From Wigglesworthia glossinidia endosymbiont of Glossina morsitans morsitans (Yale colony) (GTDB lineage Bacteria > Pseudomonadota > Gammaproteobacteria > Enterobacterales > Enterobacteriaceae): 32,000 bases of DNA. Below are positions 22,578-26,673 of this stretch, piece by piece. Position 1 is the first letter of the stretch, and each line of letters starts with the position of its first letter. A model generated the notes under the pieces. That model was not told where the DNA came from. It worked only from the letters and a program-made list of their open reading frames with translations, and did no database searches. The position numbers and the translations under genes are program-made. The stretch lies in contig NC_016893.1 of assembly GCF_000247565.1 (NCBI RefSeq), forward strand, positions 270,001 through 302,000. Reading direction: 5' to 3'.

Positions 22578-22648
22578 AAGCTAGTTATATGAACGCACGT
22601 AAAAATGACTCTTTAAAAAAATTCAAAAAACTGATATATTTACTGTTT

Positions 22649-22721
22649 GGCCCTTTAGCTCAGAGGTAAGAGCAGGCGACTCATAATCGCTTGGTCGCTG
22701 GTTCAAATCCAGCAAGGGCCA
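22649..22721 (+). tRNA. ileX: tRNA-Ile2 (anticodon CAU, lysidine-dependent), ileX-like; no encoded CCA
   Basis: GGCCCTTTAGCTCAGAGGTAAGAGCAGGCGACTCATAATCGCTTGGTCGCTGGTTCAAATCCAGCAAGGGCCA is nearly identical to recalled E. coli ileX, including the anticodon stem-loop GGCGA-CTCATAA-TCGCT. It is in the same position downstream of rpoD. A clean 7-bp acceptor stem (GGCCCTT/AAGGGCC) is followed by A then AAA, not CCA. From the anticodon alone, elongator tRNA-Met cannot be fully excluded. Confidence 0.88.
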
Positions 22722-22783
22722 AAATTATAATAATTTTAAAGATTATAATTTTAAAATCAAATAAACTAATTTTTTAACAAATT

Positions 22784-23596
22784 TTACATTTCTCTTAAAT
22801 TATAAAAGAAAAAATTTAAGCAATTAGATATCCGTTCTTTTTCGTCTCTATAACATTTAGCCATAAAAGTACGAGTATTAATATTTTCTTGCATTAAAGG
22901 ATCTGATATGACAGATCTCGAAAAGATTACAATATAATTTTTCTTACATTGTTCGCCTTGCATAACTGAAGCAATTTTTGTATTGTAGTCATTTTTTTCT
23001 AATGTTGGAATGGGATGTATAGTATATACTTTGCAAGAATTTACCTGATCAAAAAAATATAATTTTTGATTAAGATCTTGTTTTTGATTAAATATAAAAA
23101 ATAAACCAGTTCCAGTAATAAAAATAAATAAAAAAGCAAAAATTGTCTTATATTTTTGAAATACATGATTTTGAGAAATTAAATTTTTTCCAAAAAAAAT
23201 GTTTCTTTTAAAGTATGATTTATTATTACTGATAAAATCAAACTTTTTGCTATTCTTTATTTCTTTGATAGCAAGTTGATCATTTAGTTTCAAACCTTTT
23301 TTAGGAATAGTTATGATGACTGAAGAATTTAGACCGAGTTTTCTTAATCCTTTTCGAATTAAACTAATTTGTTGATTTAAATTTCCATTTGACGGTTGTA
23401 ATCCGTGTACATGCCAAATGTTTTCAAATAAATGCTCTCTCGAAAGAGGCCCGGAATTTTTACGATATTTAATGAGTTCTTCTAGAACTCTTCCTGCGGA
23501 ATGTGACAATTTAATGAATTTATTTTTTTTACGAAACAAACTCAAATTATATTCTATTGTATCAAAAATTACTAATGAATTGATTATATATTTCAT
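22784..23596 (-). CDS. ToxR/CadC-family membrane-anchored transcriptional regulator: N-terminal OmpR/PhoB-type winged helix, one TM helix, ~100-aa periplasmic domain with 4 Cys
   Basis: A 270-codon open frame is very unlikely by chance in such AT-rich DNA. GGAG lies 6 nt upstream of the ATG. Residues ~25-105 fit the ToxR/CadC wHTH pattern (LSREHLFENIWHVHGLQPSNGNLNQQISLIRKGLRKLG...IITIPKKGLKL versus ToxR ISRNDLHDFVWREQGFEVDDSSLTQAISTLRKMLKD...VKTVPKRGYQL). The single hydrophobic span is IFAFLFIFITGTGLFFIF (~aa 152-169). The wHTH-coding DNA is visibly richer in G+C than the rest of the gene. Confidence 0.8.
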   Translation of the reverse strand: MKYIINSLVIFDTIEYNLSLFRKKNKFIKLSHSAGRVLEELIKYRKNSGPLSREHLFENIWHVHGLQPSNGNLNQQISLIRKGLRKLGLNSSVIITIPKKGLKLNDQLAIKEIKNSKKFDFISNNKSYFKRNIFFGKNLISQNHVFQKYKTIFAFLFIFITGTGLFFIFNQKQDLNQKLYFFDQVNSCKVYTIHPIPTLEKNDYNTKIASVMQGEQCKKNYIVIFSRSVISDPLMQENINTRTFMAKCYRDEKERISNCLNFFFYNLREM

Positions 23597-23597
23597 C

Positions 23598-23620
23598 GGC
23601 TACTCCATACTCGACTAGCC
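23598..23620 (-). promoter_or_regulatory. Leader of the regulator gene: 5-bp inverted repeat GGCTA/TAGCC enclosing the Shine-Dalgarno GGAG
   Basis: The minus strand reads aGGCTAgtcgagtatGGAGTAGCCgATG. The stem arms are at 23616-23620 and 23598-23602, and GGAG is at 23603-23606 (+ coordinates). About half of these 24 nt are G/C, which is anomalous for intergenic DNA here. Any regulatory role is inferred. Confidence 0.35.
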
Positions 23621-23622
23621 TA

Positions 23623-23654
23623 TCTATTAAGTCTATTTAAGGCGTCTATAAAAG
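23623..23654 (-). repeat. Three tandem ~10-bp direct repeats (+ strand TCTATTAAG / TCTATTTAAG / gcg / TCTATAAAAG) 27-58 nt upstream of the regulator start codon
   Basis: Read directly at 23623-23631, 23632-23641 and 23645-23654. The minus strand reads CTTTTATAGA-cgc-CTTAAATAGA-CTTAATAGA. Confidence 0.6.
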
Positions 23655-24748
23655 TAACAATTAAATTTATCTAAATGCATTAAAATGAATATATTTAATA
23701 AGCATTAAAATATTTAAAAAATTAATTATTACATTATTAATATAAAATTTTTTATTTTTAATAAATTAAACAAAATATTTGTTAAACTTTAAAATATTTT
23801 TAATGCATTAATAATGAATAAATTTTTAAAAAATTTATATCAATATATTTTTTTTATATTTGTAATTAAAATTTTTTTATAATTCAAAATAAATTTCAAT
23901 TGTATTATAATTAAATTATAATAATTTATTTTTTAAAAATTTAATTATAAAAAAAATTTTATTATTCAGATATTTATTTTAACTTTCTTAAGTTTTAATA
24001 TTTTTATTTTATTTATTAAATATAGTATATTTTTTTTGATCTAAAGATTTTATCTTTTTAAGATTGAATTATTGTTTTTTTAAAATATAAATAATGTTTG
24101 ATGAAATATTCCAATTATTTTATTTAATTTTTCAAAAAAAATTTTTTAAATTAAATATATTTTTTATTATATCATATATAAAAAAAAGTTGAAATATATT
24201 TCATTTTAAAATATCAAATATCATAATACAACTATTATTTTAATCATAAACAGAGATTTAATTTTTTTAATATTTATATATTAAAATATTTTTTTGAGAA
24301 ATCATTTTTTATTTTAATTCAATAAAAATAAATTTTTTTTAATATTAACTATTAAACAATATAAATTATATGTATAATATATGCAGTTTTTTATAATATA
24401 GTAAATAAGTTATTATTTATTAACTTTATTAGTTTGTTTTATTAGTAATTTAAATAAAATTATTAACATACTTATATAAAGTATAATCATATATTTTATA
24501 TAAAATAATTTTTAATATTTTATATAAAAAAAAATTATTAATTTAATACATAAATTTATTTTTTATATAAAAATTTGTAATAAAAATATAAATTTTTTTG
24601 AAATATGCAATCTAAATAATTAATAATAATTCATTTTGTATAAAAGTTTTATTAAAAAAATTAAGCATATTAAATTTAAATTTAATTAAAATAATTTTTA
24701 CATTAAAAAATCAATTTTTTATATTAGAAAACTAAAAAATTTAAATTG

Positions 24749-25233: not shown

Positions 25234-26231
25234 CTAAAAATGTTGATATGCTGAATTGTTATTTATAATATTTGAATATTTTCCTATTAACTGTAATCCT
25301 ATTTTTTTTGAACAAATTTCTCCGATACAAGTTAAAATGATACCTGTTTTTTTTAATAAAAATTTTAGTTCTTTTTTTTTTTTTTAGGAATTGTAAAACA
25401 TAATTCATAATCTTCGCCGCCATATAAAGCAAATGATACAGCGCGTTTATATTCAACGTTTTTTAACAAATATGATGATATTGGCAAATTATCTAAATAA
25501 ATTTTTGCCCCACATTGACTACTATTCAATATATTTTTTAAATCTATTATAGTACCATCAGAAATATCACAAGCAGCATTAACAAGATGTCTTAAAATAA
25601 TGCCTTCGTTAACTCTTGGAATAGGGCGTATGTGTCGATTAATCAAATAATTTCTGCTTTTCTTATCTGTAATACGCAAATTATTCATCAAAATTGATAA
25701 TCCTGCTGCGCTATCTCCTAAAGTACCTGTAACGTATATAAGATCTTTAATTTTAGCACTATAACGGGACATTTTAATATTGTTATTTTTTGGAATTATT
25801 CCTTGAGCAGTTATAGTAATACTTAATGGACCTTTATTTAAATCCCCACCTATTAATTTTACGTTAAATATATTTAAATTATGAAATAATCCTCGGCTAT
25901 ATTTAGATATCCATAATTCGTTAATAAATGGTATAGTAAGAGACAATAAAATCCATTTAGGAGATGCACCCATAGCTGCAAGATCGCTTAAATTGACTGA
26001 TACAGATTTATAGCCTAAATCAAATGGATGAATTTTTTCTAGAAAATGTGTATTTAATACTAAAGTATCCATAGTGATAACTATATAAGATGCAGCATGA
26101 ATTATTGCACAATCATCACCAATTTTAGATTTAATATATTTGTTTTTTTTATTAAATTTATTAAAATATTTATTAATAATGTATTTTTCTTTCTTGTTAT
26201 AATTTTTTTTTTCTTGAAATTTTATGTTCAT
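25234..26231 (-). pseudogene. thiL: Thiamine-monophosphate kinase, frame broken by a 1-nt shift in an A14 tract near the 3' end
   Basis: ORF 25365..26231 matches ThiL up to GGEDYELCFTIP, then runs into A14 and stops (KKKKKN*). My translation of a shifted frame directly after the tract gives ELKFLLKKTGIILTCIGEICSKKIGLQLIGKYSNIINNNSAYQHF*. This aligns with the E. coli ThiL C-terminus ([24 protein letters not shown]...WKGYDHF). A15 or A12 would give about 332 codons (E. coli 325). The restored stop is at 25234-25236, 11 nt before the pgpA start. Confidence 0.85.
25372..25385 (-). repeat. A14 homopolymer (T14 on + strand) at the thiL frameshift site
   Basis: Counted directly in 'agttcttttttttttttttagg'. 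Confidence 0.9.
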
Positions 26232-26237
26232 AAATAT

Positions 26238-26655
26238 TTATTTAATTTTTAAATTTAAATTTGTTGCAACTTTATCTAATACTCCATTAATAAATTTATG
26301 ACTTTTTTCTGCACCAAAAATTTTTGCCAATTCAATTGCTTCATTAATCGCAACTTTATATGGAATTTCTGTATCATGATACAATTCAAATATAGCTATT
26401 CTAAGTACAGATAATTCTATATGACAAATTTGTTGTATACTACGTGATAACAAGCATGGTAATATTAATTTATCTAAATTATTTTTGTTTTTAATTACTC
26501 CATAATATATTTTTTTAAAATAATTAATATCTATGCATTTTTTTTTTATTTAATAAAACATATTTTTGAATTTCTAATATGTTGTTATTAGAAACTTGCC
26601 AAGAATAAAGCGCCTGCAAAGCACATTGCCTAGCATGCCTGCGATAGGTACTCAT
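26238..26655 (-). pseudogene. nusB: Transcription antitermination factor NusB, frame broken by a 1-nt shift in an A10 tract
   Basis: The ATG at 26655 opens [39 protein letters not shown] (E. coli [26 protein letters not shown]...). After A10 the frame hits a stop (MHRY*). The frame obtained by removing one A reads [52 protein letters not shown]... and runs into listed ORF 26238..26453 ([31 protein letters not shown]). With A9 the gene is 138 codons (E. coli 139). Confidence 0.87.
26538..26547 (-). repeat. A10 homopolymer (T10 on + strand) at the nusB frameshift site
   Basis: Counted directly in 'ctatgcatttttttttttatt'. Confidence 0.9.
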
Positions 26656-26673
26656 ATAATTTAATTCCTTAAT

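Follow-up and report, generated by a model that had tools for sequence, protein, structure and literature searches.

Co-component systems, among them YqeI/YqeJ and MarT/FidL, combine a membrane transcription factor of the ToxR/VtrA type with a partner in the periplasm that resembles a lipocalin (Kinch et al., 2022, PMC9214523). Direct promoter binding from a membrane-tethered position is established for ToxR, TcpP, MarT and related proteins, whose activity is set by the periplasmic domains together with the partners; in the transcription factor, a conserved disulfide joins the two final strands of the periplasmic domain (PMC9214523). The gene considered here, yqeI (WIGMOR_0291), lies in a 32,000-nucleotide stretch of the Wigglesworthia glossinidia endosymbiont of Glossina morsitans morsitans (NC_016893.1, positions 270,001 to 302,000; the window). 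It is real and probably functional, and its product is likely to be the Wigglesworthia orthologue of a YqeI-type regulator of the Sodalis clade, i.e., a bitopic inner-membrane transcription factor of the ToxR/VtrA/YqeI/MarT co-component kind.

The closest described systems are YqeI/YqeJ of E. coli (ETT2 island) and MarT/FidL of Salmonella (SPI-3). The window protein resembles YqeI and MarT in length (269-270 aa) and in the order of its parts: a winged helix-turn-helix (wHTH) domain, a transmembrane segment and a periplasmic beta-beta-alpha-beta..beta-beta domain. Four periplasmic cysteines are shared with E. coli YqeI, including the pair of the last two strands, for which PMC9214523 describes a conserved disulfide in this branch. 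BLASTP against E. coli K-12 YqeI covers aa 1-264 (E 4e-14) with all four cysteines aligned, and the window gene is assigned by sequence to the YqeI/MarT/GrvA branch of the family (PMC9214523). The free-living orthologues of the window gene resemble these systems in having a FidL_like (PF15941) gene, which overlaps their stop codon. However, the identity with E. coli YqeI is only 24%, no FidL/YqeJ partner was found in Wigglesworthia, and the window gene is placed among housekeeping genes, with no pathogenicity island, type III secretion system or autotransporter beside it.

Vibrio cholerae ToxR (of ToxR/ToxS) provides the best solved-structure match for the DNA-binding domain and has the same bitopic topology and periplasmic cysteines. 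In contrast to ToxR/ToxS, the window protein has four cysteines and no ToxS-like neighbour, and the periplasmic similarity is marginal (E 0.07); its model has no counterpart of the C-terminal helix reported for ToxR and VtrA (PMC9214523). E. coli CadC is alike in having a ToxR-like wHTH and one transmembrane helix, with a weak match of the DNA-binding domain (5ju7; E 8e-4 by fold, 1.8e-5 by profile). With the CadC model NF007540 of NCBIfam the score is 21.6 bits, where the cut-off is 400, and the match extends over aa 51-131 only, i.e., the wHTH region; since the window protein has 270 aa and the CadC model 516 positions, there is no room for the large periplasmic pH-sensor domain of CadC.

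An orthologue is also present in another ancient obligate insect endosymbiont, Blochmannia floridanus (Bfl390, 'yqeI'), described as a protein with a wHTH and a transmembrane segment (Gaudermann et al., 2006, PMC1360075). It is 45-48% identical to the window protein over the shared part, and no fidL was found with it either. Unlike the window protein, the Blochmannia proteins have about 210 aa and a periplasmic part of about 40 residues, with C188 and lineage-specific cysteines.

The open reading frame (ORF) of the window gene is intact, with 270 codons on the minus strand beginning with ATG; the probability of 270 stop-free codons arising by chance at the base composition of the window (24% G+C) is about 1e-11. 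A GGAG at 23603-23606 precedes the ATG with a 6-nt spacer (TAGCCG), as had been read in the first-pass annotation, made from the letters alone. The product is identical to AFA41129.1/WP_014354068.1, deposited as 'hypothetical protein' and now labelled 'winged helix-turn-helix domain-containing protein' in RefSeq; the orthologue of the G. brevipalpis symbiont (W. brevipalpis) is already annotated as yqeI. The gene and the parts of its product are located as follows:

22784-23596, minus strand: yqeI-like gene, 270 aa plus stop, ToxR-type transmembrane transcription regulator
23258-23596, minus strand: wHTH DNA-binding domain, predicted to be cytoplasmic, aa 1-113 (Pfam match at aa 28-102, 23291-23515)
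23174-23257, minus strand: low-complexity juxtamembrane linker, aa 114-141
23090-23146, minus strand: single predicted transmembrane helix, aa 151-169
22787-23086, minus strand: predicted periplasmic domain, aa 171-270, beta-beta-alpha-beta-(alpha)-beta-beta, with four cysteines

The N-terminal domain is matched by Pfam Trans_reg_C (PF00486; 28.2 bits, gathering cut-off 26.2, E 2e-6), and the Pfam scan of the protein returned no other domain, thus none of the receiver type. A profile of 52 orthologues matches the DNA-binding domain of V. cholerae ToxR with E 1.1e-14 and that of CadC with E 1.8e-5. The AlphaFold2 model of the full protein has a mean predicted local distance difference test score (pLDDT) of 81; in aa 1-113 the score is about 90-95, and four strands, three helices and a hairpin form a winged-helix fold. 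According to Foldseek, this domain is closest to the ToxR-DNA complexes 8b4b/8b4d (template-modelling score 0.85-0.88, E about 7e-7), with CadC and TcpP next and the DNA-binding domains of SaeR and OmpR also matched. Across the 52 sequences the recognition helix (SNGNLNQQ.S.IRK) and the wing (T.PK.G) vary little or not at all, and therefore the DNA specificity is probably common to the subfamily. R81/K82 correspond to ToxR R96/K97 by our count on the profile alignment.

The linker cannot be aligned between lineages and is modelled as disordered (pLDDT <50) at aa 116-139. The segment aa 151-169 is the sole hydrophobic segment of its kind (Kyte-Doolittle 19-residue mean 2.32); the modelled helix spans aa 142-170, and KYK stands on the N-terminal side of the segment. 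One polypeptide would thus join a cytoplasmic wHTH, one transmembrane helix and a C-terminal periplasmic domain, the orientation being predicted. The periplasmic fold is modelled over aa 180-263; modelled alone, the domain reaches a pLDDT of 80.9 and a predicted template-modelling score of 0.70. Its one credible match in the PDB is the periplasmic domain of V. vulnificus ToxR (6utc; probability 0.96, template-modelling score 0.47-0.50). The cysteines are C188 (23033-23035), C217 (22946-22948), C248 (22853-22855) and C259 (22820-22822), and they occur in the four motifs given in the first-pass annotation (SCKV, EQCKK, AKCYR, SNCLN). C248 belongs to the strand 243-250 and C259 to the strand 256-263 of the model, and both are conserved in all full-length orthologues except that of Sodalis sp. 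Psp. A ToxR/CadC-type membrane-tethered one-component regulator with an OmpR/PhoB-type winged helix, one hydrophobic helix and a four-cysteine C-terminal domain of about 100 aa had been proposed in the first-pass annotation, and Pfam, the transmembrane segment, AlphaFold2, Foldseek and the profile agree with it. The wHTH DNA is also richer in G+C, as had been stated: 28-32%, compared with 17% in the linker, 16% in the transmembrane segment and 25% in the periplasmic part. The difference sits in codon positions 1 and 2, the third position being flat at 17-19%.

An exhaustive HMMER search yielded eight representatives at E <=1e-30. Seven of them are from the Sodalis clade, Wigglesworthia or Blochmannia, and the eighth is a Wigglesworthia fragment in a Glossina austeni gene model. 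After a gap, full-length proteins of about 30% identity follow, four of them named as wHTH proteins of Rahnella, Erwinia, Serratia and Pantoea; by these searches the subfamily appears to be a separate, narrow clade. Orthologues in other Wigglesworthia are 93, 85 and 62% identical (the last is annotated yqeI), those in Sodalis spp. 42-54%, and those in Acerihabitans and Biostraticola 40-42%; one more occurs in an assembly labelled 'Martelella alba', and more than 30 Blochmannia sequence clusters retain the gene. 'Orphan', as the gene had been called, thus fits with respect to the lost co-sensor but not with respect to relatives, since there are many orthologues and a gene name already in W. brevipalpis. 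The gene was inherited vertically from a Sodalis-like ancestor, as shown by the orthologues of the Sodalis clade, the synteny shared with W. brevipalpis (partially in two more assemblies) and the native base composition.

Two of these database entries deserve separate mention. The 'Martelella alba' BGMRC 2031 contig (NZ_SZPQ01000011.1, locus L031), labelled as alphaproteobacterial, has the Sodalis-clade yqeI-fidL-GGDEF cassette; its match to the window protein is 56% identical in the best tblastn segment and 39% in the protein alignment. A mislabelled organism or a contaminated assembly may lie behind this. The Glossina austeni UniRef protein (P0053, 340 aa, 'PurM-like N-terminal domain-containing protein') matches aa 184-255 of the window protein with about 90-93% identity and appears to be a chimera, a gene model of the host assembly put together from Wigglesworthia DNA (thiL + yqeI).

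In free-living relatives the gene belongs to a cassette. In 12 of 12 free-living loci yqeI is followed by a FidL_like gene (PF15941, 155 aa) and then by a dCache-GGDEF diguanylate cyclase gene; where gene calls exist, the FidL-like frame overlaps the yqeI stop by 1-4 bp. In the Sodalis-like ancestor, yqeI was translationally coupled to a FidL-like periplasmic co-sensor, with the dCache-GGDEF gene behind it. The same yqeI-like/fidL-like/dCache_1-GGDEF cassette was noted in every free-living Sodalis-clade locus examined (L002, L009-L011, L015, L019, L021-L029, L031). Presence of the GGDEF gene in all free-living loci suggests that the ancestral system fed cyclic di-GMP signalling.

In the window only 61 bp separate the yqeI stop codon from the next gene, a tRNA gene. 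No FidL relic was found by tblastn in the window or in other Wigglesworthia and Blochmannia loci, and a tblastn search of the window, including its 1152-bp spacer upstream of yqeI, for remnants of FidL, dCache-GGDEF, OprC and DUF2946 gave nothing below E 1. A FidL profile search returned 21 proteins, all the named ones from Sodalis, Acerihabitans or 'Martelella alba' and none from Wigglesworthia or Blochmannia; a comparable search with YqeI readily recovered both. The reduced Sodalis sp. Psp has lost cysteines 3 and 4; with a weak FidL relic (E 0.016) just 3' of yqeI, it could represent an intermediate. We accept that the FidL/YqeJ partner is gone from Wigglesworthia, where neither co-sensor nor GGDEF gene was found, with the caveat that genome-wide absence follows from a word-indexed protein search and local tblastn, not a full-genome hidden Markov model scan. 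This agrees with the earlier remark that no partner gene is adjacent. Since no adjacent FidL/YqeJ gene was found, the window gene should be regarded as a homologue of the transcription-factor component, and the locus not as a co-component system.

Selection was estimated by the Nei-Gojobori method as the ratio of nonsynonymous to synonymous substitution (dN/dS) between the window and two contigs with 93% identical yqeI (L012/L013), a metagenome-assembled genome (MAG; L007, 85%) and W. brevipalpis. The genes dnaG and rpoD were assigned via orthology with the Pfam-annotated genes of locus L001. The dN/dS values for L012/L013, L007 and W. brevipalpis, respectively, were:

yqeI: 0.055, 0.067, 0.157
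rpoD: 0.055, 0.091, 0.115
dnaG: 0.22, 0.20, 0.42
yqeI, winged helix: 0.042, 0.036, 0.060
yqeI, periplasmic domain: 0.019, 0.065, 0.152

Because synonymous divergence is high (proportion of synonymous differences, pS, 0.43-0.66), these magnitudes are rough and those against W. brevipalpis unreliable; the contrast with dnaG is still clear. The gene is under strong purifying selection, with constraint at about the level of rpoD, and so its retention is meaningful. Between close strains, constraint on the protein is strongest in its periplasmic domain. As for expression, yqeI is among the differentially expressed Wigglesworthia genes (PMC8166097, supplementary file 3); the supplementary data of two other Wigglesworthia transcriptome studies contain no usable yqeI entry.

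The following mechanism could be proposed. YqeI would reside in the inner membrane and bind A+T-rich promoter DNA via its invariant recognition helix and wing, directly activating one or a few target promoters, like ToxR, TcpP and MarT. The periplasmic domain would probably fold or dimerise through two disulfides (C188-C217 and C248-C259). Their state could set the stability or activity of YqeI in keeping with conditions in the periplasm or outside the cell, the lipocalin partner no longer taking part. The host-cue-responsive switch suggested in the first-pass annotation would be a putative role of such a protein. Most simply, the four-cysteine domain would act without FidL through disulfide-dependent folding, dimerisation or stability.

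Several points weigh against a sensing regulator of this kind. We know of no member of the subfamily with a known target, binding site or stimulus. The signal in co-component systems is thought to be read by the lipocalin, so that a partnerless protein may sense nothing. The Pfam score of the single sequence is just 2 bits over the threshold, the 6utc match (E 0.07, template-modelling score about 0.5) is suggestive rather than conclusive, and the pairing of the cysteines is putative and deduced from their position. The scope of the FidL searches and the high synonymous divergence, both given above, should be added here. The chief alternative is a constitutive, non-sensing activator, in which the gene is kept for one or a few indispensable promoters and the tether and periplasmic domain serve folding or stability. 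It accounts for the failure to find the presumed ligand-binding component, the FidL/YqeJ lipocalin (PMC9214523 for its role in the family), and for Blochmannia, where the gene persists in so many sequence clusters with only some 40 periplasmic residues, which shows that a sister lineage can do without most of this domain. It fits poorly with the Wigglesworthia periplasmic domain, whose dN/dS of 0.019-0.065 and four retained cysteines go beyond the needs of a mere anchor. Tissue- and stage-specific transcription in Wigglesworthia (PMC3280448), which means that some regulator there must respond, is likewise at odds with it. On balance we regard this alternative as unlikely, although it should be taken seriously, and prefer the YqeI-type regulator whose periplasmic domain contributes to its activity.

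Two further explanations question the gene itself. If it were a decaying relic, i.e., a functionless ORF not yet inactivated, the loss of its ancestral neighbours fidL and GGDEF, the initial 'hypothetical protein' label of WIGMOR_0291 and the borderline single-sequence Pfam score would be understandable. This is contradicted by the dN/dS of 0.055-0.067, equal to that of rpoD, by ORFs intact in at least four Wigglesworthia lineages and many Blochmannia, and by a ribosome-binding region that is invariant inside a spacer of 9.5% G+C; decay is very improbable. A Trans_reg_C match, a transmembrane helix, dN/dS far below 1, intact sister orthologues and a reported transcript (PMC8166097) were all found, in line with the regulator first proposed. 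The other explanation, a horizontally acquired island gene integrated beside a tRNA, had been hinted at in the first-pass annotation. The gene does lie close to a tRNA 3' end (61 bp, 3' end to 3' end), at the junction of two conserved gene blocks, and its homologues yqeI (E. coli) and marT (Salmonella) sit in pathogenicity islands (PMC9214523). The tRNA in question is:

22648-22722, plus strand: ileX, tRNA-Ile2 (anticodon CAU), detected by ARAGORN and Rfam, convergent with yqeI

ARAGORN named it Met(CAT), which is corrected here; in a two-sequence alignment its mean column identity with E. coli ileX is 95%. E. coli ileX is likewise located just downstream of rpoD, and ileX of the window is thus in the ancestral post-rpoD position. 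W. brevipalpis also has the order pgpA-yqeI-ileX-rpoD, and another MAG and Logan contigs (two further assemblies) show its yqeI-rpoD side again. The tRNA 3' end is not repeated elsewhere in the 32 kb, and the G+C content of yqeI (24.6%) is that of the window (24.0%). Among the ORFs of at least 100 aa scanned with Pfam no integrase or other non-housekeeping family was detected. Apart from yqeI these are all housekeeping genes, as had been noted earlier (serC, aroA, cmk, rpsA, tamA/B, ppa, fbp, ispB, rplU, obg, a ubiH-like gene, folB, tsaD, pgpA, thiL, ribH, ribD, pyrB and a class-I tRNA synthetase). The closest homologues of yqeI are chromosomal in the Sodalis clade, a group related to Wigglesworthia. 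Furthermore, a trxB-oprC-yqeI arrangement at a different location, probably the older one, is common to B. floridanus (trxB-infA-oprC<->yqeI) and Sodalis sp. Psp (lrp-trxB-oprC<->yqeI). Judged by these comparisons, the gene is ancestral rather than acquired; the island hint was not borne out, and integration beside the tRNA can hardly be credited.

The TonB-dependent copper receptor gene oprC (TIGR01778) is divergent from yqeI in Biostraticola (L028), in two Sodalis-type loci and in B. floridanus. In both reduced symbionts, B. floridanus (L030, 1409-4639) and Sodalis sp. Psp (L020, 682-4813), it stands beside trxB, and OprC is kept in many Blochmannia species. No Wigglesworthia homologue occurs among the best 120 OprC matches, and in most free-living loci oprC is not adjacent to yqeI; OprC was rejected as a general YqeI target on these grounds. 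It is a possible candidate target in Blochmannia.

YqeI could also be considered as the missing switch of a regulated Wigglesworthia flagellum. Reports of the flag-4 flagellar locus are confined to Sodalis, Biostraticola and Wigglesworthia (PMC7526173), and this set of taxa overlaps strongly with that of the YqeI subfamily. The Wigglesworthia locus is devoid of fliA, flgM, fliT and fliZ (PMC7526173, PMC3280448), while fliC and motA are on in the extracellular milk-gland and larval population (PMC3280448). In avian pathogenic E. coli (APEC), a yqeI mutant loses flagella and flhDC expression is lower (PMC7552227). In such a scheme, the partnerless periplasmic domain would report the passage from the bacteriocyte cytosol to the extracellular milk, e.g., by disulfide formation, and activate transmission genes. 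Since Blochmannia has no flagella and keeps yqeI, flagella cannot be the sole target, and the flagellar role remains doubtful.

The region upstream of yqeI consists of two parts:

23597-23660, minus strand: leader and translation-initiation region of yqeI, conserved, with the GGAG and the invariant TATGGAGTAGCCG
23661-24748, strand not assigned: non-coding spacer between pgpA and the yqeI leader, very A+T-rich, presumably holding the yqeI promoter

When four Wigglesworthia upstream regions are aligned, the ATG and the 13 bases 5' of it (TATGGAGTAGCCGATG) show no variation, in a spacer otherwise of about 10% G+C, and ATGGAGTAGCC is found in three Sodalis-type loci too. The folding of Wigglesworthia leader RNAs was no better than that of shuffled sequences (z between -0.1 and -1.4). 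RNA structure in the leader is not claimed, the consensus fold being weak (RNAalifold -0.3 kcal/mol, little covariation). In most Sodalis, Acerihabitans and Biostraticola loci (L019 1470-1505, L024, L027, L028 and others) an inverted repeat TATTGG-N~13-CCAATA adjoins the GGAG; in Sodalis SoCistrobi it is a perfect 11-bp hairpin. The 3' half of the repeat and ATGGAGTAGCC are still visible in Wigglesworthia (window 23597-23625). This repeat could be an operator or an RNA element.

The full spacer (23597-24748) is the longest in the window, with 1152 bp and 9.5% G+C, and contains only low-complexity A+T tandem repeats and no ORF over 32 aa; the homologous spacer of W. brevipalpis has 235 bp. A promoter scan found as many sigma-70-like sites as expected from shuffling and is thus uninformative at 9.5% G+C. 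Rfam detected nothing in the window locus besides the tRNA. In other Wigglesworthia strains, three short-read (Logan) assemblies and one MAG contig all stop 170-480 bp upstream of yqeI, as if the spacer region tended to break assemblies.

Two genes nearby may be altered. Between ribH and thiL (26232-26673, minus strand) lies a gene seemingly split over two reading frames, which is putatively nusB by its resemblance to the E. coli sequence. Its first part (MSTYRRHARQCALQALYSWQ...) has 43 codons up to a stop right after a lysine/poly(A) run, and the remainder is in another frame; in W. brevipalpis there is a 41-aa gene call at this position. It could be a pseudogene or a gene rescued by poly(A) slippage. 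The thiL ORF (minus strand) ends at 25365 with 288 aa, compared with 329 aa in W. brevipalpis, and the last 34 or so residues of the brevipalpis protein match separately at 25341-25237, beyond the stop. In the window strain, thiL thus seems to be truncated or frameshifted towards the C-terminus.

The family of the window gene is known, and the gene has already been annotated. What is added here is its assignment to the YqeI/FidL co-component lineage, the finding that no co-sensor is detectable in two lineages of obligate symbionts, and the rpoD-level constraint. Ancient obligate endosymbionts have lost nearly all of their transcription factors. The practical value is limited, since Wigglesworthia cannot be cultured or genetically manipulated. 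For the biology of this symbiont, yqeI provides a concrete candidate for the unassigned regulator of tissue- and stage-specific expression (PMC3280448), because its architecture links the envelope or the outside to promoters, its conservation is rpoD-like and its transcript is reported. For the ToxR/VtrA co-component family, the two independent obligate symbiont lineages represent a natural experiment, in which the DNA-binding component is present and no lipocalin co-sensor was found. Such loss of the partner bears on which half of co-component systems holds the indispensable function.

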